DNA of 33,158 nucleotides from Actinomycetota bacterium (GTDB lineage Bacteria > Actinomycetota > Actinomycetes > JAKEEW01): NCBI GenBank assembly GCA_046725875.1, contig JBKOZJ010000095.1:1-33158 (forward strand). The letters are read 5' to 3'. A program made the translations under genes and the position numbers. Below the pieces are notes generated by a model. That model worked only from the letters and a program-made list of their open reading frames with translations, made no database searches and was not told where the DNA came from. Below, one piece after another: positions 2,768 through 15,803 of the stretch; position 1 is the stretch's first letter; every line of letters begins with the position of its first letter.

Positions 2768-3535
2768 CTACGGATGGCCGCTCGCGCTGTGGATGACGTT
2801 GAAGCCTGCCCCGAAGCGGTCCTGGACGACCGCCATCCGCCCATAGGGCGTGTCCTCGGGCTCCACGAGCACCTGGCCGTCGTGCTCCAGGACCCTCGCC
2901 ACCGCCACGTCGGTGTCGTCGACTTCGAAGTAGACCGACCAGTGCGGCGGCAGCTCCGGCATGCCTTCCATCGGCCCCATGATGCCGCCGACCTGCTGCG
3001 CGCCGACCTGAATGATGTGGTAGTCCATGCCTTCCACCGGCTCGTAGGTGTAGCCGAAGACGGTGGAGTAGAAGTCCCTCGCCGCAGGAGTGTCTCGAGT
3101 CGTCAGCTCGAACCAGCTGAACGCGCCATGCTCGCCCATCAGCTCCGCTCCGCGTTGCGCCTTGCCTTGCCACAGGCCGAATGCGGCGCCAGCCGGGTCG
3201 ATGGCGAGCGCCGACCGGCCCTGATCCATGATGTCCATCGGCTCCATCGTGATCGACCCGCCTGCGTCGCGGATCAGTTTGACGGTGGCGTCGACGTCAT
3301 CAGACCAGAGATAGATCGTCCACGCGACCGGCTGCTCGGGGCTCATAAGGGGACCGATGCCCGCGACCTGCCTGCCGTTCCTGGTCGCGATCAGGTAGCC
3401 GCCCGCTTCAGGGCCGGGATCGAAATAATCCCAGCCGAGGACGGCGCTGTAGAAGTGCTTCGCCGCCTCGAGGTCGGGCACTCCGAGATCCGCCCAGCAG
3501 GGAGCGCCTTCATTGAAGGAGGTCGTCTCTGCCAT
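2768..3535 (-). CDS. VOC (glyoxalase/bleomycin resistance) family protein, two-domain
   Basis: GAPCWADL...FYSAVLGW and WFELTT...FYSTVFG duplicated VOC domains; GGAGG RBS upstream of ATG 3535. Confidence 0.9.
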   Translation of the reverse strand: MAETTSFNEGAPCWADLGVPDLEAAKHFYSAVLGWDYFDPGPEAGGYLIATRNGRQVAGIGPLMSPEQPVAWTIYLWSDDVDATVKLIRDAGGSITMEPMDIMDQGRSALAIDPAGAAFGLWQGKAQRGAELMGEHGAFSWFELTTRDTPAARDFYSTVFGYTYEPVEGMDYHIIQVGAQQVGGIMGPMEGMPELPPHWSVYFEVDDTDVAVARVLEHDGQVLVEPEDTPYGRMAVVQDRFGAGFNVIHSASGHP

Positions 3536-4147: not shown

Positions 4148-6799
4148 TCACGCCGCGCCGAGGGGGAGAAAGGCAAGGGCGGTCGCTTGCGCGACGGGGT
4201 CGGCAGTAGTCGCCTTGCGCGCGTAGTGCATGGCGTGCGCAAGGTCGTCCCCGGCCCGCAGGCGTTCGTGTACGAGAAGGGAGACGCGCACGGCCGCGTC
4301 GTCGTCGACCACGACTGTGCTTCCAAGCAGCCCCGCTGTCCCAAGCGAGATCAGCGCGCTCGCCAGCCCAAGCACCTCGTCCGCGCCCGCCTTCGTACCG
4401 ATGCCCGACTCGCACGCGGAGAGGATGAGCCGGTACGGCGCCCGCCGGAGGCGTTCGATGTCGTACACCGTCAGCGGACCGTCATGCAGCGTCAGTGCCG
4501 AGAACAAGGGGTTGTCCGAGCGAAGCGTGCCGTGTGCCGCGATGTGCGCTAGCCAGGCATTGTTCAGCGCCTTCAGAGCGTCCTCGCACCGCGCTGTGCC
4601 ATCGGCAAGGACCATGGCCTGGTCGTAGGTCCTCTGCAGCTCTGTTACCTCCGCCCCGCGCGAGCCGAGATCTGGGCCGGCGATGAGTACGACATCCCGC
4701 CTACGCGGCGGTCGCCGGTTCTTGGCGCGCAGCCACGCCGCCGCCGAGGGTGCGACGGTGAACGGCCGATCCCGGAGCGCAGGGAGTATGGCCCACGGCA
4801 GCGCGTGCAGTTTCGCAGGTGGCACTACGATCACCGGCCCGTCACCGAGCGCACGCACGGCCTTGCCGAAGAGCATCTCCTGCAACCGAGGCGCAGCGAC
4901 GTCGACCCGTTGCAGCGCAACTCGTGCCCGAGCCTCACCAGTGCCGGCGGCGCCGCGCAACGCGAACCGCGTGTGGTCGACCTCGCGCGCCACCTCCTCG
5001 ATCCGCCCGGCGTCGAACCTCCGCACCTTTCCGCCACCCGCGACGAGAGCGATGAGCTCCCCGTCGACCTCCACGATCGACACCAGCCGCCAGCCGCCCA
5101 GGGACTCCAGCAACTCCCGAATGTGGAACGACGCCGAAGTGGCGCTGCCCCCTAACCCCGGCGTCTGCAGCGTCCGCGCCCGGATAGCCTCCTCCAACCG
5201 CCGCCGGTCCCGCTCGAGCTGGGTCGTGGACTGGCCAGCCAGCCTTGCCTCAGTCAGCTTGTGTGTGACGCCTCGAAGTTTGGCGAGATCAGCGACAAGC
5301 TGCTTGTCATCCGGCGGCTCCGCCGGCGGAATGGCGGCGATGGTCGCGCGCCAGCGTTCGGTCCATCTGAGCAGCGCACGCGGATCGTTGGCCACCAGCG
5401 CCTCGTGGATGGCTATCTCGGCAAGAGCGGCGCCATGGGCAGTCGCTGATGCCTGCATTTCGGCCGCTCCAAGCGTGACCCGGTAAGCGTCTACGATCTG
5501 CAGGCCGCGCTCGCACGCGTCGAACACTGATTTACGCCGTCCGGCCGCCTGGGCACGCAGCGCCGACGCGTGCCAACCGAGTACCCGGCTCAGCGGCGCC
5601 CCCCGAGATCGGGCACGGGCCGCCCGCAGCAGGTGGGCCTCGGCGGCTGCGCGGTCGTCCAGGCCGGACGCGATCTGCCCAGCCAGCAGGTGGGCGTCGA
5701 GCGCCTCAGCCACGCGGTGCCGATCGGCCGTTGCCGCCACCTCAGCCGCAGCTCTGAACAAGCGACGGTCGCGTTCGCCGGACGCATACCGGGCTCGGAC
5801 AACCACGAGCCGCGCCAGCGCTTCGCCGCGCTCGCGTCCCTGACGCCGGAAGAGCCGAACCGCCTCGATGGCGTCGGTCTTGGCGAGTTCCACGTCATGG
5901 GTTGCCAATGCGGCCTTCGCCGCGCGCACCAGAGCGTTCGCCCGGTAGGCCGCCGAACCCCCCTGGCGGCGCAGAATGTTGACCGCCTCCTGCCCGTGGC
6001 GAAGGGCGTCGGCGTACAGACCCACGGCGAGCAGCGCCGCACAACGGACCTCCGAGAGCTCGGCCGGCCGCGCCCCGGCTTCGGCATACCTCCCCTCAGC
6101 CGCGTCGTAGTGCGCCAGTGCTTCGGGTACCTTTCCCAGCAGCGCCGCAACGATTCCGCGGTTGTGGCGCGCGACAGCTGCTTCGAACTGTTGGGCATTC
6201 TCGGTCAGGACGGCTTCCGCTCGGGCGAGAGCCTCCTCCGCGCGGCGGGCGTCACCGCGATCGAGGAGAACGTCCGAAAGGGTGATCAAAGCGCGAGGCT
6301 CCCAGACGGTGTCACCTGCGGCACGGAGGGTCCGCGCCGCACGGCGAAACTCCTCGATTGCCTCACCGGTGCGGCCGAGGATGCCGAGGAGGAATCCGCG
6401 ACGCACCCTCACCCGCGCCGCCATTACCCCCGATACTTTGGCGAGTGCCGCATCCATATGGCGAAGCGCCTCGCGGCTGCGGCCAGCGTAGGCGAGAGTG
6501 GCGCCAAGGCTCGCCTGAACATCGGCCTGCCGCTCGCCGCCGCAGGAGGCCGCTGTAACTAGCGCGGCGCGGAGGTGGCGGACAGCTCCGCCAACGTCAC
6601 CCATCTCCCTGGTCGCGATGCCAAGCGCCTGGACCGCGTACGAGCGGACGTATGGATCACGGGTCGTCGCAAGCACGCGTTGGGCCACCAGCGCGGTCTC
6701 CTGGGGCCGAGAAAGCGCGCGCACCGGAAGATCCTCTGCCTGGCCGTCTAAGGTCATTTCGGCGGAGGAGGAATTTGGCTTTGGTTTCTCCAGGACCAC
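4148..6799 (-). CDS. TPR-repeat + CHAT domain (caspase/HetF-like) protease
   Basis: Ala-rich TPR-like helical repeats, then a CHAT domain with LHALPW, catalytic His in AHIAAHG and Cys in LSACESG. Start at GTG 6799 (TAGCCT -10 element 7 nt upstream, leaderless); ATG 6757 is the alternative. Confidence 0.9.
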   Translation of the reverse strand: MVLEKPKPNSSSAEMTLDGQAEDLPVRALSRPQETALVAQRVLATTRDPYVRSYAVQALGIATREMGDVGGAVRHLRAALVTAASCGGERQADVQASLGATLAYAGRSREALRHMDAALAKVSGVMAARVRVRRGFLLGILGRTGEAIEEFRRAARTLRAAGDTVWEPRALITLSDVLLDRGDARRAEEALARAEAVLTENAQQFEAAVARHNRGIVAALLGKVPEALAHYDAAEGRYAEAGARPAELSEVRCAALLAVGLYADALRHGQEAVNILRRQGGSAAYRANALVRAAKAALATHDVELAKTDAIEAVRLFRRQGRERGEALARLVVVRARYASGERDRRLFRAAAEVAATADRHRVAEALDAHLLAGQIASGLDDRAAAEAHLLRAARARSRGAPLSRVLGWHASALRAQAAGRRKSVFDACERGLQIVDAYRVTLGAAEMQASATAHGAALAEIAIHEALVANDPRALLRWTERWRATIAAIPPAEPPDDKQLVADLAKLRGVTHKLTEARLAGQSTTQLERDRRRLEEAIRARTLQTPGLGGSATSASFHIRELLESLGGWRLVSIVEVDGELIALVAGGGKVRRFDAGRIEEVAREVDHTRFALRGAAGTGEARARVALQRVDVAAPRLQEMLFGKAVRALGDGPVIVVPPAKLHALPWAILPALRDRPFTVAPSAAAWLRAKNRRPPRRRDVVLIAGPDLGSRGAEVTELQRTYDQAMVLADGTARCEDALKALNNAWLAHIAAHGTLRSDNPLFSALTLHDGPLTVYDIERLRRAPYRLILSACESGIGTKAGADEVLGLASALISLGTAGLLGSTVVVDDDAAVRVSLLVHERLRAGDDLAHAMHYARKATTADPVAQATALAFLPLGAA

Positions 6800-6912
6800 T
6801 CGACCAAGGCTAGAGACCGTGAAGTGGCAAAGACAGCTCCGCGGTAAGCGGAGATGCACGTAGAGTGATCTCAGGTGTACGGAAGGGGTTACTCGCTTCA
6901 GGAGGGGAAGTC

Positions 6913-8274
6913 GTGTCCCAGGACGACAATGGCGCCCAAACGCCGGAGGCCGTTGAGCAAGCGCGCGACGAGCTCCGGCGGCGATTGGTCCCAGAGGTGC
7001 GGACAGCCCTGCAGAATGCCCCTGATGTGCGGGCGTGGCCGCTGAACTGGGATGAGAGAGGGCGGATCGATTACTTCTATCGCAGCCGATCGCTGTTAGC
7101 TCGTGACCGAGACCTTCCGCGTGTCCACAGCGCGCTGCGTGCCTTGGGCGTCCAGTTCGGGGACGCCGACACTGCGGCGGCACAGGCCCTGCCCGAGCCT
7201 GCCGACCATGCGCTGGTCAGCGGCGTCACCAGGCTCGACGCCCGTGTCCGCGAATCGCAGCACACGCCCGATGTCGTCGACGACCTCGATAGGCGCCTCG
7301 GTGTAGGCGTAGTAACGCACGATCACGTGTGCGTGATCACCTACGGAACCGTCTGCCCGGCGACGGAGCCGGAGGAAGTCATTACGCCTCAAGCGGCGGA
7401 GAACCCGGCGGCGGTGCGGGAGGCCCTGTGGCCGAGTGTCGGCGACCCAGCGGCGGGGCGTAATGTCAGGATCTCCGTCGTTGATACTGGTCTGCTGTCC
7501 GGGGCGACCGCGTGGGCGCCCTGGATACAGGGTGTACGCCCCAACACGAGCGCCGACATCGAGGATCCAGACCAGATCACGGTCGACTCCATGGGCCGCG
7601 GAATGGACGGCTTCGCCGACCCGTACGCTGGCCACGGCACCTTCGTGTCTGGCGTGATCCGTTGCGTCGCCCCGGGCTCGCACATTGTCGTCGAGCGCGC
7701 CCTCGGAGTCTCGGGCTTCACATGGGAGTCCCGCCTCGTCACACAGATTCACGACGCCCTGTCCCGTTCCCCCGACATCATCAGCATGTCTGCTGGCTGC
7801 TACACCCGGGGGAACATTCCTTCACTCGCCTTCCAGGTCCTATGGGAGGAGCGCCTCAGCCAACTCGGCGGTGTCGCACTCGTTGCCGCCGCAGGCAACG
7901 ACTCGCGGACTGCCCCGTTCTGGCCAGCCGCGTTTCCATGGTGCGTGGGGGTGGGCTCGACGAGTCGCGATGGGCAGCGCCGCTCCTGGTTCAGCAACCA
8001 TGGAGCCTGGGTCGACGTCTATGCGCCGGGCGAAGAAATCGTGAACGCCTACGCCCACCTGAAGTACAAGACGATCGTCAGCGGCCAGGTGCGGGACACC
8101 TCCGCAGGCATCGTCAAATGGAGCGGTACATCGTTCTCGACCCCGATCGTCACCGGTCTTATCGCGGCCCGGATGTCAAGCACCGGAGAGAACGCACGCC
8201 AGGCTGCCGACGCGCTGCTCGCCGGGGCGCGATACCAGTTCCGCCCCGGTGTGGGACCTCGCCTTTTCCCCTGA
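6913..8274 (+). CDS. S8 (subtilisin-like) serine peptidase, no evident signal peptide
   Basis: Triad VVDTG / GHGTFVSG / SGTSFSTP, oxyanion AAAGN; GGAGG at 6901 upstream of GTG 6913. Confidence 0.92.
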   Translation: MSQDDNGAQTPEAVEQARDELRRRLVPEVRTALQNAPDVRAWPLNWDERGRIDYFYRSRSLLARDRDLPRVHSALRALGVQFGDADTAAAQALPEPADHALVSGVTRLDARVRESQHTPDVVDDLDRRLGVGVVTHDHVCVITYGTVCPATEPEEVITPQAAENPAAVREALWPSVGDPAAGRNVRISVVDTGLLSGATAWAPWIQGVRPNTSADIEDPDQITVDSMGRGMDGFADPYAGHGTFVSGVIRCVAPGSHIVVERALGVSGFTWESRLVTQIHDALSRSPDIISMSAGCYTRGNIPSLAFQVLWEERLSQLGGVALVAAAGNDSRTAPFWPAAFPWCVGVGSTSRDGQRRSWFSNHGAWVDVYAPGEEIVNAYAHLKYKTIVSGQVRDTSAGIVKWSGTSFSTPIVTGLIAARMSSTGENARQAADALLAGARYQFRPGVGPRLFP

Positions 8275-8585: not shown

Positions 8586-9467
8586 TCATGCCGCCGTCTC
8601 CTGTCGGGCCCGTTCGTAGTCGACCGGGGCCACCATGCCGATCGTGGAGTGCCGCCGGTGGTGGTTGTACTCCTCGAGGAAGGCCGCGACGGCGTGCCGC
8701 GCTTCGGCGCGGGTGATGAAGTGTGCCTCCCGCAGCAGCTCGAACTCCACGGTGGAGTGGAGCGACTCGGCGACGGCGTTGTCCAGCGCGGACCCGGTGC
8801 GTCCCATCGACTGGGTCACCGCGGTGTTCGCGCACGCGGCGGCGAACAGCTGCCCGGTGTATTCGCCGCCCTGGTCGGTGTGGAACACCACCCCGGCCAC
8901 GTGGCCGCCGCGGATCGCGATGGCCATGCACAGCGCGGCCCGGGCGAGCTCGCCGTTGTGGTGGTTCCCCATCGCGAACCCGACACAGCGGCGGGAATGC
9001 AGGTCCAGCACGCTGGCCAGATACAGCGGCCCCTCGTCGGTGGGGATGTCGGTCAGGTCGCCCACCCAGGCCTGGTTCGGCTTGTCCCGCAGGGAGAAGT
9101 CACGGCCCAGCAGGTCCGGGGCTTTCCGCGCCGACCGGTCCGGTTTGGTCAGTCCCCGCCGGCGCCGCGTCCGCCGAGCCGCCAGCCCGTGCTCGCGCAT
9201 GAGTTCGGCGACGGTGTTCTGGCTGACCCGCCACCCCAGATCCCGCAGTTCGGCGGTGATCCGCGGTGACCCATAGCGGCGGTTGTGCTTGGCGAACAGG
9301 TACCCGACCGCGGCGGCCAGCGCCCGCCGTCGAGCCCGCCGCAGCGACACGTCGCCGTGGCGCCACTTGTAGAACCACGCCTGCGAGACACCCAGTGCCC
9401 GACACGTCACCGCGTGCGGGATGCCGAACTCGACCCTCTGGGTCGCGACAAAGCCGGCCAGGCTCAC
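8586..9467 (-). CDS. IS3-family transposase OrfB (DDE integrase core)
   Basis: RYGSPRI, WVGDLT (D), FHTDQG (D), DNAVAES (E), YNHHRRHSTIG. Confidence 0.95.
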   Translation of the reverse strand: MSLAGFVATQRVEFGIPHAVTCRALGVSQAWFYKWRHGDVSLRRARRRALAAAVGYLFAKHNRRYGSPRITAELRDLGWRVSQNTVAELMREHGLAARRTRRRRGLTKPDRSARKAPDLLGRDFSLRDKPNQAWVGDLTDIPTDEGPLYLASVLDLHSRRCVGFAMGNHHNGELARAALCMAIAIRGGHVAGVVFHTDQGGEYTGQLFAAACANTAVTQSMGRTGSALDNAVAESLHSTVEFELLREAHFITRAEARHAVAAFLEEYNHHRRHSTIGMVAPVDYERARQETAA

Positions 9468-11763: not shown

Positions 11764-13029
11764 ATGGCGACCGACCCGACCGATCAGATGTACGCGGAGA
11801 AGCTCGACGCGGCCGACGAGCTGGCCAGTTTCGCCGACCGCTTCATGGTCGATGACCCGGATCTGATCTATCTGGATGGCAACTCGCTCGGCCGGCTTCC
11901 GCGCACTACCCGCGACCGCCTCGCCCGCGCCGTCGACGAGGAGTGGGGGCGGGACTTAATCCGCTCCTGGGACTACTGGATCGACCTGCCCACCCGAGTC
12001 GGTGATCTTCTAGCGACCGAACTCATCGGCGCCCACACGGGTGAGGTGGTGGTCTCGGACTCGACCACGGTCAACCTCTACAAGCTCGCGGCCGCCGCGC
12101 TAACCGCCCGCGCCGGCCGGCGAGTGATCGTGACCGACGACGACAACTTTCCGACCGACCGATACGTGGTCGAAGGGCTGGCCGCGGCCCACGGGCTCAC
12201 ACTCAAGATGGTGCGCTCGGATCCGGTGCACGGTCCTAGCCGCGAGGAGCTCGATGCGGCGATCGACGAGGACACGGCGCTCGTCACGCTTTCGCATGTC
12301 GCTTTCCGGTCCGGCGCCCTTTTGGATATGAGCGACATCACGCGGCTCGCCCATGAGCGCGGGGCGCTGATGCTGTGGGACCTGTGCCACTCGGTCGGGT
12401 CGGTGCCGGTCGAGCTTGCAGCGGCCGGCGCGGATCTGGCGGTGGGCTGCACGTACAAATACGTCAACGCCGGGCCGGGCGCCCCCGCCTTCCTCTACGT
12501 ACGCCGGGACTTGCAGGACGCGCTTCGCCAGCCGATCTGGGGATGGTTCGGGCAGCGGGACATGTTCGCCATGGGCCCCGCCTATGACCCAGAGCCGGGC
12601 ATCCGCCGGTTCACGACGGGCACGCCGTCGATCTTGGGCGTATACGCAGTTCAGCAGGGCGCGGAGCTGCTCGCGGAAGCCGGGATGTACCGAGTGCGAG
12701 CGAAAGGTATCGCGCTCACGTCCTATCTGATCGACCTAGCCGACGCCTGGCTCGCGCCGCTCGGCTTCTCGGTGGCGACACCGCGCGACCCGGAACGGCG
12801 TGGCGCCCAGGTGTCGCTCCGCCACGACCAGGCGTGGCAAATCTGCCAGGCGTACATCGAGAAGGCCCGGGTCATCCCGGACTTCCGCGGCCCCGACCGG
12901 CTCCGCCTCGGACTGTCTCCCCTAACTACCAGCTTCGTGGACGTGTGGGACGGGCTCTCCCGGCTTCGGGCCCTCGTTGAGAACGGCGACCATCAGTCGT
13001 ACCCAGCATCCGCATCCCGCGTGACTTAG
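11764..13029 (+). CDS. kynU: Kynureninase (PLP-dependent)
   Basis: YLDGNSLG, WDLCHS, GCTYKYVNAGPG (PLP lysine), WGWFG, PDFR; TAACGT -10 element 7 nt before ATG 11764. Confidence 0.92.
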   Translation: MATDPTDQMYAEKLDAADELASFADRFMVDDPDLIYLDGNSLGRLPRTTRDRLARAVDEEWGRDLIRSWDYWIDLPTRVGDLLATELIGAHTGEVVVSDSTTVNLYKLAAAALTARAGRRVIVTDDDNFPTDRYVVEGLAAAHGLTLKMVRSDPVHGPSREELDAAIDEDTALVTLSHVAFRSGALLDMSDITRLAHERGALMLWDLCHSVGSVPVELAAAGADLAVGCTYKYVNAGPGAPAFLYVRRDLQDALRQPIWGWFGQRDMFAMGPAYDPEPGIRRFTTGTPSILGVYAVQQGAELLAEAGMYRVRAKGIALTSYLIDLADAWLAPLGFSVATPRDPERRGAQVSLRHDQAWQICQAYIEKARVIPDFRGPDRLRLGLSPLTTSFVDVWDGLSRLRALVENGDHQSYPASASRVT

Positions 13030-13033
13030 CGGA

Positions 13034-13052
13034 CGCCGACGCATCGTCGGCG
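13034..13052 (+). terminator. Possible hairpin terminator after kynU
   Basis: CGCCGACG-CAT-CGTCGGCG, 8-bp perfect stem just after the stop codon; no U-tract. Confidence 0.35.
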
Positions 13053-13080
13053 GGTATCGCGCCCGCGAGGGTTGTGGTCT

Positions 13081-13160
13081 GATCCGCCAAGCGTTTGGAA
13101 CACGAGCCTGGCGTACTGGACCCCGAGCGTACGGCTCGGCCTTGACATGCTTTGCGGATC
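13081..13160. repeat. 80-bp REP-like element, copy 1 (GATC-ended inverted repeats)
   Basis: GATCCGCCAAGC-N56-GCTTTGCGGATC; homologous to 14256-14335. Confidence 0.8.
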
Positions 13161-13299
13161 AATCTGACCCCTGGGCAAGCGTCATCACGCAGCAGATGGT
13201 CACGAACCGCACCCGTACCTGTGGACAGGCTGTGGGCAACGTACGTGCGGTGGACGCCGGCGCGGGCATGCTTGTCTGGTCCAATTTGGGGGTTCGGCC

Positions 13300-14214
13300 A
13301 TGCATCCAGCTTTGAGCGCCGCGGAGCGCGAGCATGGTGGCGTCTTCCGAGTGGCCGAGGCGGTGGCCTGCGGCTACGCCGATGACGAGATAAGAGGCCT
13401 GGTCCGTTCAGGCCGGTGGGTTCGGGTCAGACACGGGATTCTCGCCGAGAGGGAGACCGCGGCGGCCATTCGCGCCGAGCCCGAGGGAGCGCTCGCTCTA
13501 TCCCTTGCCGGCGAAATTTGTGCCCGGCCCAGCGCCCGTCTGGCCGCTAGCCACGAGTCCGCCGCTCGGCTGCTCGGCCTGGATTTCATCGTCGATCCAC
13601 CGCGCATGCTCACGCTTACCACCGACACGCCCGGTAGAGGGCGAGGATGGGTGAGCGGGGTTCGCATTAGGCGGGCGACACTACCGCCCGGTCATGTCAC
13701 GGAGTGCCGTCGGCTACCTGTCACAACCGTCGCTCGCACGGTGGTCGACCTTGCTCGCGAGCAGCCATTCCGCAACGCGGTCGTGTTGGCTGACTCCGCG
13801 TTGCGGAGGGGCCTGACCAGCCGCGATGAGCTGGACCAAGTCGTTAGGGCTGCCTGGACCTGGCCAGGCATCCGAGACGCCAGCCGGGTGGTGGAATTCA
13901 GCGATGGTCGTGCTCAATCAGCTGCGGAGTCGGTCGCCCGCGTTCTGTTCGCGACCGTGGGGCTGCCCGCGCCTCTGCTGCAGGCAGTTATCTCGGACAG
14001 AGATGGCATTGCGGGCCAGGTGGACTTCCTCTTCCGCGAAGAGCGGACGATCGTCGAGATCGACGGGAAGGCCAAGTATCGCGAGCAGGAGGACGCCCTG
14101 TTTCTGGAGAAGAAGCGGCAGGACCGGCTGGAAGACCTTGGATACCGGGTCGTACGCCTAACTTGGCGCGAGATCGTTCACGAACCGGAAATGGTGCTCC
14201 GTAAGATCGCGTGA
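13300..14214 (+). CDS. AbiEi-like N-terminal HTH + DUF559 (Vsr-like PD-(D/E)xK endonuclease) protein
   Basis: N-terminal GRWVRVRHGI, SHESAARLLG, VTTVARTVVDLAR, QSAAES; C-terminal VDFLF...IVEIDG...EKKRQDRLEDLGYRVVRLTW. Confidence 0.85.
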   Translation: MHPALSAAEREHGGVFRVAEAVACGYADDEIRGLVRSGRWVRVRHGILAERETAAAIRAEPEGALALSLAGEICARPSARLAASHESAARLLGLDFIVDPPRMLTLTTDTPGRGRGWVSGVRIRRATLPPGHVTECRRLPVTTVARTVVDLAREQPFRNAVVLADSALRRGLTSRDELDQVVRAAWTWPGIRDASRVVEFSDGRAQSAAESVARVLFATVGLPAPLLQAVISDRDGIAGQVDFLFREERTIVEIDGKAKYREQEDALFLEKKRQDRLEDLGYRVVRLTWREIVHEPEMVLRKIA

Positions 14215-14255
14215 CTGGCTACCGGATAGCTCACTGCCTTGCTGCTGGCCGTTTC

Positions 14256-14335
14256 GATCCACCAAGCGCGCCAAGCATGAACATGACGTACCGCGTGCAA
14301 GCCGTTAGGTCACCGGTTCGGCAGCTTGGCGGATC
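14256..14335. repeat. 80-bp REP-like element, copy 2
   Basis: GATCCACCAAGC-N56-GCTTGGCGGATC; same length as copy 1 with a partly conserved interior. Confidence 0.8.
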
Positions 14336-14487
14336 AAAGCGTCGAGTGTCGGGGCCGTGGTAGTCGGCGGCGCCTTATTCAGCACGGCTAACGGCATTCA
14401 GCATGGCTAACGGCAAGCTTGGCGGATCAAAGCGCCAGCATCGGGGCTGTGGTAGTCGGCGACGCTAAATTCAGCGTGGCTGACGGC
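14324..14487. repeat. Imperfect tandem repeat (2 x ~72 bp, with a 19-bp subunit present 3 times)
   Basis: GCTTGGCGGATCAAAGCG...TCGGGGCYGTGGTAGTCGGCGRCGC at 14324 and 14417; ATTCAGCRYGGCTRACGGC at 14377, 14396 and 14469. Confidence 0.9.
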
Positions 14488-14510
14488 AAAGCCAGGGTGG
14501 CGCTAGACGG

Positions 14511-15803
14511 CTAGTCCGAGTTGCGGGTGCGTGTGCCGAAGAGGATCTCGTCCCAGCTGGGTACGCTCGCCCGACGCGGTCGGGGTCCGCTTGGCGGTCG
14601 CTCGGCAGGGCCGATGAGCCGCTCCTCGTAGAGGCTCGGCCGGCGGATCGGGGCGGTCGCCGAGGCGGGCACATGCGGGCGGCGGGACCGCCGGGCCGGC
14701 CGGTCGCGATCGGGGTCGTTGCGCTGTAGCGGCCGGCGCGGTGGTACCGGAGCCAGCGGCACGAGACCGCCCATTGCGGCGACACCGACTCTCGGAACGA
14801 CCAGGCCGTCGTCGCCGCTATAGGCGGCGACGCCGCGGTCCGGGCGCTGTCCGACACCCGGTCCCAGGGCACTCGTGCCGTCGGTTCTCGAAGCACCGGC
14901 ACCGGCGATCCCCGGGCCAATGTCGGCCGCCGGCGCCGGCAGATCGAGAATGTCGCCCGCGCGGCCAGGCTGCTCCCGCCCGTGCCGAGCCGCCGGCGAT
15001 CCCTTTGCGGCGCGGCCGCCGCGTGGCCCGGCGCCCCCGGCGCTGGCACGGTCGATCACGCCAGAACCGATGTCGATCGCGGCATCCTGGTCGCCGCCCT
15101 CGTCCGCCAAACCGGACATCCGCGGCCGCAGGCCGGCCATCGCCTCAGCCGCGAGGGTTTGCTGCTCGGCAACGAGCAGCCGCGCGTTGTCGTTGTCGGG
15201 GCTCACGGTGCGACGGGTTGGATCGAGCAGGAACAGTGCCCGTTCGGTTGCGCCGGCGCTGTCTTCGCTCCCTACTTCATCGCCGCTGCCAGCCGGGTTG
15301 CTCTCGGCTGGAGCATGAGCGGCTGCAGGTCGGTGGGCGACCGCGACCTGCCAGCGCCCGTCCTCCCGCCGCCATGAATCCCACGACGCGGTATCCGGGT
15401 CGATGCCGCGCTCCCGCAGGCGCTGCGCGAGCACGTCGCCGAGCAACGGCGCCGGTCGCTCATTTGGAATAGATGCGTGCATGGCGGTCCGTCGAGCCAT
15501 CGCCGCCATGTGCTCCCGCTCGGCGAGCACCGGGCCCTCGTAGCGACGGACCCGTTCGAGCGGAATGCCCGACGCCTCGGCCACGTCGGCGGCCGACTCG
15601 CCGGCTCGGATCCTGGCCTGGATGTCACGTGGCCGTAGCGGCGTGTCCAACTCGATCTCGAGCTGACCGAGCCGTACCCGGTCCCCACGGACCGCGGCCT
15701 TCAGCTTCTCGTCGAGCGGAAGTGCGTACTCGCTGCCGTCCAGGGCGCGGAGCAGGAGCCGGGCACCCTCGTCGATGGCCGTGACCAGGCGCAGCTCTTG
15801 CAT
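14511..15803 (-). CDS. sepH: Septation protein SepH (DUF3071)
   Basis: MQELRLV...LRPRDIQARIRAG...RVRRYEGPVLAER, WDSWRREDGRW, disordered linker, C-terminal RRASVPSWDEILFG. Confidence 0.92.
   Translation of the reverse strand: MQELRLVTAIDEGARLLLRALDGSEYALPLDEKLKAAVRGDRVRLGQLEIELDTPLRPRDIQARIRAGESAADVAEASGIPLERVRRYEGPVLAEREHMAAMARRTAMHASIPNERPAPLLGDVLAQRLRERGIDPDTASWDSWRREDGRWQVAVAHRPAAAHAPAESNPAGSGDEVGSEDSAGATERALFLLDPTRRTVSPDNDNARLLVAEQQTLAAEAMAGLRPRMSGLADEGGDQDAAIDIGSGVIDRASAGGAGPRGGRAAKGSPAARHGREQPGRAGDILDLPAPAADIGPGIAGAGASRTDGTSALGPGVGQRPDRGVAAYSGDDGLVVPRVGVAAMGGLVPLAPVPPRRPLQRNDPDRDRPARRSRRPHVPASATAPIRRPSLYEERLIGPAERPPSGPRPRRASVPSWDEILFGTRTRNSD

Follow-up and report, generated by a model that had tools for sequence, protein, structure and literature searches.

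The question raised by a 33,158-bp contig of an Actinomycetota bacterium (JBKOZJ010000095.1, an entire metagenomic contig, analysed at full length and called the window below) is why a single gene for an AbiEi-like/DUF559 protein lies between two 80-bp palindromic elements that resemble each other. The gene (13300..14214, + strand, 304 amino acids) is located between genes for kynureninase (kynU, + strand) and SepH (sepH, − strand). A sequence-only reading of this DNA had described the gene, its domains and both neighbours correctly, and had compared the elements with repetitive extragenic palindromic (REP) sequences kept by a REP-associated tyrosine transposase (RAYT), with structured RNAs as an alternative. 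We favour another answer, to which we give a probability of about one half: the two elements would be cognate operator-type binding palindromes of the encoded protein, and not dispersed repeats.

The upstream element occupies 13081..13160 and the downstream element 14256..14335, neither being assigned to a strand. Both end in inverted copies of GATCCRCCAAGC around interiors of 56 bp, and our direct reading of the window agreed with the arms, coordinates and lengths given previously. In the upstream element the half-site GATCCGCCAAGC (13081-13092) pairs with GCTTTGCGGATC (13149-13160), and in the downstream element GATCCACCAAGC (14256-14267) pairs with GCTTGGCGGATC (14324-14335), with one mismatch between the arms in each case. 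The former lies 52 nt past the kynU stop codon with its right end 139 nt ahead of the start codon of the enclosed gene, and the latter starts 42 nt past the stop codon of that gene. Taken together, the outermost arms of the two elements (13080-13092 and 14324-14336) make up an inverted repeat of 13 nt without a mismatch. At one mismatch or less, the 12-mer arm occurs six times in the window, five times inside 13081-14428 and once at 3487 with one mismatch; outside the cluster there is no exact occurrence, and all others carry two mismatches. A further arm had been claimed at 14417. Its sequence is present (14417-14428), but it is no separate element and instead opens the second unit of a 92-bp tandem duplication (14319..14488, unstranded, 1.8 copies, 83% matches), which copies the right half-site and the DNA beyond it. 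The sepH stop codon (14511) lies 23 nt beyond the end of this duplication, whose region contains a 19-bp sub-repeat at 14377-14415.

As hairpins, the 80-mers fold on either strand (energies of −35.0 and −33.0 kcal/mol, with z-scores of −3.20 and −3.45 relative to 200 shuffles), while the 56-nt interiors alone fold no better than shuffles (z 0.12 and 0.01), and thus the palindromy in the window sits in the 12-nt arms. In direct register the interiors are identical at 23 of 56 positions (shuffle mean 14.7, P=0.009), with a best 20-mer stretch of 14/20 (P=0.0016 by shuffling), and both of these previously reported identities were reproduced when recomputed. The inverted register gives 25/56, which is no worse, and the elements can no longer be said to have the same orientation. 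The match above shuffles makes a common origin of the two elements likely, with their relative orientation undefined. Despite the diverged interiors, all four arms and the duplicated fifth keep 11-12 of 12 bases and the 56-bp spacing is identical. Conserved arms with decayed interiors suggest half-sites under selection, and neither a recent duplication nor a selected hairpin.

The enclosed protein joins a DNA-binding AbiEi part to a Vsr-fold nuclease, as had been proposed. Residues ~1-215 comprise an AbiEi-like winged helix and an AbiEi C-terminal domain, and residues ~225-304 the nuclease. Pfam matches were limited to AbiEi_4 (residues 8-47, 35 bits vs a cut-off of 25), DUF559 (residues 241-303, 33.7 bits vs 20.6) and two sub-threshold families including MTES_1575 (22.8 vs 38.2), and the PADLOC models for AbiEi cover residues 11-214 (E 2.6e-22). 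An AlphaFold2 model built from 32 sequences had a predicted local distance difference test score of 94.8. In Foldseek searches, the first two thirds of the model matched Rv2827c (1zel, E 2e-5) and AbiEi of Streptococcus agalactiae (6y8q, E 4e-5). The C-terminal domain matched best the I-Bth0305I homing-endonuclease domain (3r3p, template modelling score 0.72 on the target), as well as Vsr (1cw0 and 1vsr) and the DUF559 protein 3hrl, to which there is also a sequence match (E 1e-5). D242, E253, D255, G256 and K259 are invariant across 32 relatives; among the 75 proteins from the loci introduced below, the first four are kept in 75/75 and K259 in 74/75. The conserved aspartate, glutamate and lysine residues are probably catalytic.

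No AbiEii/DUF1814 toxin gene lies beside the enclosed gene, as stated before, or among the 85 of 150 neighbouring open reading frames (ORFs) of homologues that were scanned, which argues that the AbiEi-DUF559 gene is not part of a type IV toxin-antitoxin pair. The closest proteins elsewhere are 62, 61 and 59% identical, followed by ~51% or less (among 8,000 candidates scored). The window protein ends in ...VLRKIA, ~12 residues short of its closest homologues; a full-length C-terminus would end just before the downstream palindrome at 14256, and three-frame translation past the stop codon revealed no remnant of the homologues' C-terminal residues.

To compare the window with its relatives, species-representative genomes were scanned with a 12-sequence alignment. 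At least 599 stretches matched, at least 499 were confirmed and the best 80 were used as loci (L numbers). They come from other actinobacteria, encode homologues 37-46% identical to the window protein and extend up to 10 kb on either side; gene starts in these loci are estimates, and the control genes are the longest non-overlapping ORFs and not curated annotations. For each gene, 350 nt upstream were compared with 350 nt downstream by the best ungapped local score (+1/−2) in either orientation. This local alignment was used instead of a strict precursor, an outer 12-mer common to the upstream and downstream palindromes, which picked only L034.

The presence of flanking palindromes at homologues had been set beforehand as a test, and it gave a positive result. 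The flank score was above 14 in 12 of 74 homologues compared with 4 of 300 other genes of the same loci (Fisher p=1.5e-6), and 20 or more in 9/74 compared with 1/300 (Fisher p=2.6e-6). Mismatched flank pairs (n=150) never scored above 14; the window itself reaches 13, to which only its 13-nt arms contribute. What the two flanks share is a palindrome 62-94 bp long, whose stem measures up to 30 bp and whose folding energy is about −30 to −62 kcal/mol. The upstream copy lies ~−160 to −40 from the start codon, and most paired loci have their downstream copy starting between −5 and +14 relative to the stop codon; in L031, L029 and L077 the TGA stop codon is part of the terminal TGATC of the palindrome. 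Elements end in GATC in six of the 13 paired loci (the window, L005, L029, L031, L055 and L077) and not in the others. Within a locus the two copies are 83-97% identical over 31-97 nt, the interior being direct in five loci (L031, L021, L051, L034 and L077) and inverted in six (L055, L011, L049, L029, L005 and L012). In L055 (9870-9955 and 11005-11095) identical asymmetric arms stand in direct order around interiors that are reverse complements of each other, which amounts to a spacer flip.

In a quick maximum-likelihood tree of 75 proteins (without L003, L048 and L067 because of their length, L039 and L056 because of an in-frame stop, and L020 because it extends past the end of its contig), a branch with 99% support in the Shimodaira-Hasegawa-like approximate likelihood ratio test separates 17 rows including the window (clade A) from 58 proteins (clade B, the sister clade). 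Twelve of the 13 paired loci, the window included, belong to clade A, compared with 1/58 in clade B (p=2.9e-9), and this one, L012, is weak. One of the five unpaired clade A members, L059, carries a direct repeat at −72 and +56 that matches at 19/22 positions. The paired loci represent 11 different genomic sites when orthologous sites are counted once. The acidic and lysine residues of the nuclease are retained in both clades (D242, E253, D255 and K259 in 17/17 of clade A; D242, E253 and D255 in 58/58 and K259 in 57/58 of clade B).

Half-sites or whole elements are repeated in tandem on both sides of the gene in L065 (9340-9880 and 10980-11225, at least ten half-sites) and L077 (120-365 and 1360-1520, at least five), a multiplication that resembles the 92-bp duplication of the window. 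Short tandem arrays within 400 nt of the gene were also seen in L053, L045, L070, L033, L016 and L061 (7 x 20 bp, 8 x 18 bp, 6 x 14 bp and others). The homologue frames of L039 and L056, as delimited, hold an in-frame stop (the ORF call in L056 is 458 amino acids), and these genes may be pseudogenes or carry frameshifts; L056 retains both palindromes despite the stop.

Such local duplications raise the question of whether the pair is a neutral by-product, a palindrome having been duplicated when the gene arrived or afterwards in place, with both copies decaying since. The tandem duplications in the window, L065 and L077 and the high identity of copies elsewhere, interiors as well, are what such a process would leave. 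It accounts poorly for the window, however, where the interiors are near random and yet the arms and their spacing have been kept, and for a trait maintained over a long-branched clade at so many different sites (12/17 vs 1/58). We regard this explanation as very unlikely.

Over the whole family, it is the upstream side that stands out. Of the 75 family genes (window included), 43 had a palindrome with a span of 40-120 and an arm score of at least 10 in their 300 nt upstream, compared with 43 of 300 controls (p=1.7e-13), and at an arm score of at least 12 the numbers were 24/75 and 15/300. Downstream palindromes were not enriched over the whole family (17/75 vs 45/300 controls, p=0.12). The spans of the upstream elements cluster: 32 of 44 measure 62-76 bp (median 70, with a median arm of 16.5 nt), compared with 19 of 88 control palindromes (p=1.8e-8), which suggests a spacing constraint. 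The covariation of the palindromes with the protein, suggested earlier as a check, was seen in that each locus has its own sequence, with relatedness only between proteins at least ~60% identical. Among 861 pairs, related elements were found in 0/642 pairs below 50% protein identity, in 1% at 50-60%, in 33% at 60-70% and in three of four pairs above 70%. Certain cores recur at the arm ends, such as GACTT (eight loci vs 0.7 expected) and ACTTT (six vs 0.2), and GACAT and CACTT are also enriched. Mismatches within arms comprise 75 G.T and 69 A.C, without strand bias, as expected for a double-stranded DNA site. For 12 sister-clade loci, the end of the right arm falls at −23 to −30, directly next to a promoter element starting at −28/−29, the position where a repressor site would sit.

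These observations can be accommodated if the AbiEi-type winged helix recognises inverted half-sites of 12-13 bp at a fixed spacing of 56 bp on double-stranded DNA. The upstream element would then be an autoregulatory operator through which the protein represses its own gene, as in the abiE and rv2827c promoters, and the downstream element a second site of the same kind, duplicated past the gene; its candidate roles are a loop, a roadblock or a substrate. Gene and sites together would form a self-contained, bracketed module. In the parts of the published accounts drawn on here, AbiEi represses its own promoter and binds, upstream of its gene, a pair of 23-bp inverted repeats separated by 3 bp (PMC3985639), and Rv2827c of Mycobacterium tuberculosis recognises four 23-bp repeats, arranged as two pairs with gaps of 13 bp, in the region −1 to −131 (PMC7319586). 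We favour the operator because the AbiEi fold has been kept, because upstream palindromes with similar arm lengths and a clustered span are found in the family, and because arms and spacing are conserved in the window while the interiors have decayed; the tracking of element sequence with protein relatedness and the common AT-rich cores at the arm ends also count for it.

The likeness to these two systems extends from the shared fold of the first two thirds of the protein to inverted repeats ahead of the own gene, with arms of ~10-30 bp here (median as above) compared with the 23 bp described in those parts of the two papers. It includes several tandem repeats in some loci, and the extra half-sites of L065 and L077 recall the four repeats of Rv2827c and were counted for the operator. 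There are also differences. The protein studied here has a Vsr-fold nuclease fused to it in place of an AbiEii/DUF1814 partner, the half-sites are further apart (a total span of ~70-80 bp vs 49-59 bp in the published descriptions, as far as drawn on) and the binding sites here are putative. In addition, the clade of the window has a second copy downstream, which is a new feature relative to known AbiEi operators.

Several points weigh against such an operator. The upstream element of the window, at −220 to −139, is distant from the start codon, and the window region has no sigma-70-like promoter (0 sites). A downstream operator is without precedent in the portions of the AbiE work compared (PMC3985639 and PMC7319586), and the downstream element lies between convergent genes, where no promoter is expected. 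At other loci the whole element is palindromic, with stems of 19-30 bp and −40 to −62 kcal/mol. In the orthologous loci L021, L056 and L020 (five copies), five stem pairs have changed on both sides, one of them between the two copies of L021. Full-length stems and compensatory changes of this kind, as in L021, fit a hairpin or cruciform better than two half-sites. The interior flipped between direct arms in L055 is not explained by a passive operator, some of the common arm-end cores may come from an overlapping promoter box of the sister clade, and the L034 and L051 proteins, 64% identical, have unrelated palindromes.

The stable stems could instead mean that the elements are hairpins independent of the protein, which terminate or insulate transcription around a potentially harmful nuclease gene, both copies deriving from one ancestral terminator. 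In favour of this, both elements trail the stop codon of a + strand gene (kynU and the enclosed gene, at the distances given above) and fold on either strand, the stems of relatives are very stable, and convergent genes enclose the downstream copy in the window, L021, L034, L051, L049, L065 and L077. However, a scan for promoters and terminators gave neither a consensus promoter nor a terminator-like site on either element. Structure alone would not need the arm sequence to be kept, which is all that the window keeps, its interiors folding like shuffles. Furthermore, downstream palindromes are not enriched family-wide, the sister clade is equally convergent and yet lacks the downstream copy, and the clustering of spans near 70 bp is left unexplained. 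Terminator hairpins are therefore an improbable account of the pair.

Comparisons of loci at the same site indicated whether the palindromes belong to the gene or to its surroundings. The flanks of L005 and L029 are 86-88% identical. On the L029 scale their homology is lost at −113 and picked up again at +84, both points lying no more than 8 nt from the outer palindrome ends; the genes align at 75% over only 511 nt, and the palindromes differ past a common GATCAC start. At the aspS site, L034, L051 and L059 have flanks that are 87-89% identical and genes that are 70-83% identical; their palindromes are unrelated between loci and paired within L034 and within L051. L021, L056 and L020 are collinear at ~84% identity, palindromes included. 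These comparisons argue that the palindromes go with the gene and not with the site. As for the surroundings of the genes, the Pfam-matching neighbour ORFs (85 of 150 scanned) code for ordinary proteins, most of them housekeeping. The sites purA/DUF3151-fbaA and purK/purE-THUMP methyltransferase recur, and others are next to aspS, yebC, bioB, ftsK, gatB, metG and a pair of histidine kinase and response regulator. The context of the window is shared by none of the 80 loci, the single kynU-like match being 30% identical (L011).

With regard to site usage, family genes across genera reuse a few intergenic sites between core metabolic genes. The fbaA site is occupied in L015, L023, L035, L036, L042, L049, L058, L061, L062, L066 and L070, of which L049 is a clade A member at a site otherwise used by the sister clade, and the THUMP methyltransferase site is occupied in L006, L008, L009, L019, L039, L040, L053, L054 and L072.

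A unit of palindrome, gene and palindrome set between housekeeping genes may also be a minimal selfish DNA cassette, or one that was once mobile. The winged helix would guide the Vsr-fold nuclease to both palindromes, extruded or double-stranded, and cutting or junction-type processing there would excise, copy or recombine the unit or flip its interior. The single-gene unit at varied sites, the absence of a common context, the breaks of homology at the palindrome ends in L029, the downstream copies that start at the stop codon or even include its TGA, the mixed interior orientations with the flip in L055, and the invariant catalytic-type residues of a domain whose best structural match is a homing endonuclease all speak for it. 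On the other hand, nothing points to recent movement because genes that are close relatives never differ in their chromosomal site, and a palindrome is common to two loci only when these are orthologous. The closest protein is only 62% identical (within the candidates scored). The outer arms in the window have no flanking direct repeat: the 10 nt outside them (13070-13079 vs 14337-14346) differ, and there is no target-site duplication. The unit has no recombinase or transposase of its own; an IS3-type transposase ORF (rve, HTH_21; 8586-9467, − strand) is 3.6 kb upstream of the elements. Integron attC sites and IS200/IS605-type hairpin ends were also considered as identities of the elements, and the window contains neither an integrase nor a transposase of the latter type. 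In a plasmid collection tblastn gave four weak partial matches only, and blastn of 13040-14500 gave no match in plasmid and phage collections. Nor was an empty site seen among the loci compared: all 426 ordered locus pairs with both flanks matching span a homologue gene, and loci in which just one flank matched did not yield a clean empty site either (metG is common to L047 and L063, the other neighbour is not). A mobile cassette is thus unlikely, although not so remote as the other alternatives to an operator. In comparison with a transposon or a miniature inverted-repeat transposable element with terminal inverted repeats, the window unit differs by having no target-site duplication and no further copies. 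The C-terminal domain of the model superposes on I-Bth0305I (3r3p), Vsr (1cw0) and 3hrl; unlike I-Bth0305I, the gene studied here is free-standing and not intron-encoded, and its product carries an AbiEi-type DNA-binding part.

The copy number of the palindromes in the DNA scanned does not support the analogy drawn by the sequence-only reading. In REP/RAYT systems the gene of a nucleic-acid enzyme is flanked by cognate palindromes whose sequence varies between family members, and REP doublets form hairpins at intergenic positions. The locus studied here is similar in that a gene for a nucleic-acid enzyme is bracketed by cognate-type palindromes that differ between members, and in hairpin size (60-95 nt) and position. 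It differs in that the enzyme has a PD-(D/E)xK/Vsr fold and not the HUH (Y1) fold, the elements are 2-4 times longer than a single REP and dispersed copies are absent from the DNA scanned. The exact 12-mer of the window has no match in the 80 loci, and when the flanks of the 13 paired loci were searched against all loci with blastn-short, further copies appeared only in orthologous loci. The outer 13-14 nt of the arm of each locus, at one mismatch or less, had a single match in the 193,704 bases that lie around the cassette zones of the 13 loci, and since this match (L055:20276) lies in coding DNA without a palindrome, there are no real extra copies; no third copy of a palindrome was found outside the gene flanks. 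Densities of several hundred copies per genome, as for REP sequences, are excluded, and a few tens to roughly 100 copies are still compatible with the 194 kb covered. As for structured RNAs, an Rfam 15 scan of 12800-14800 on both strands gave no match at E<=1, and the wobble mismatches in the arms show no strand bias. It is accordingly most improbable that the window elements are two local copies of a dispersed REP/REPIN-like family or structured small RNAs: the size and placement of the hairpins and the room left for up to roughly 100 copies agree with it, whereas the rest of the 33-kb window has a single one-mismatch 12-mer, the 80 loci have none and no HUH transposase is encoded. What was observed, then, is a pair of sites of fixed spacing that recurs with differing sequences in relatives and is restricted to the flanks of the gene.

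The region between the upstream palindrome and the start codon contains further short motifs. In the window, a CTGTGGA box is followed by a CTGTGGG repeat (13219..13236, + strand; 13219-13225 and 13230-13236). TGTGGA was found within 160 nt upstream of 10/17 clade A genes, 6/61 clade B genes and 4/300 controls, and the carriers of the CTGTGGA box are the window, L001, L005, L011, L029, L034, L051, L059, L065 and L077. The box lies at −46 to −50 in six clade A loci and at −80 in the window, and is possibly a promoter or activator site. Reverse copies are present in L002, L004, L049 and L065, and in L065 the box forms a small palindrome of its own. The sister clade has a different signature, TGTC-N13-A-N3-T with its end 6-7 nt ahead of the start codon, in 38/61 genes compared with 2/300 controls and 1/17 in clade A. 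The PafBC motif of mycobacterial DNA-damage promoters, as given in the portion of the source used here, is tGTCgg(N10)tA(N3)T (PMC8635444). The sister clade thus has the published bipartite motif just ahead of its start codons, and on this sequence likeness its genes may undergo leaderless, DNA-damage-induced transcription. The window gene differs in having only TTGTCTGG at −28 (13272-13279), with no A in the −10 position and no match to TGTC-N13-A-N3-T, and in clade A the motif at that spacing is limited to the one gene counted above.

Elsewhere in the window, an ORF for a TPR/CHAT-domain protein of 1011 amino acids (4148-7183, − strand) overlaps a subtilase ORF (6865-8274, + strand), and the two might form a conflict system based on a protease.

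AbiEi-DUF559 fusions are a large and uncharacterised family in Actinomycetota, with 450 matches among the 8,000 candidates scored and the confirmed stretches (at least 499) of the species-representative genomes. Its members are routinely annotated as antitoxins, yet they have no toxin partner. Our literature search found no publication naming both DUF559 and AbiEi and, mostly at the level of titles and abstracts, no link between DUF559-fused AbiEi proteins and flanking palindromes. If the mobile cassette were true, it would be a non-HUH functional counterpart of REP/RAYT that is now mostly settled between housekeeping genes of Actinomycetota. The PafBC-type promoters predicted in the sister clade link the family to the actinobacterial DNA-damage response. 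The analysis assigns the family a defined cis-element: a ~70-80-bp palindrome whose sequence follows the protein and which, in one clade, stands on both sides of the gene. With short DNA probes it could be asked what the winged helix targets, whether the nuclease acts on its own flanks and whether the downstream copy serves looping or insulation.

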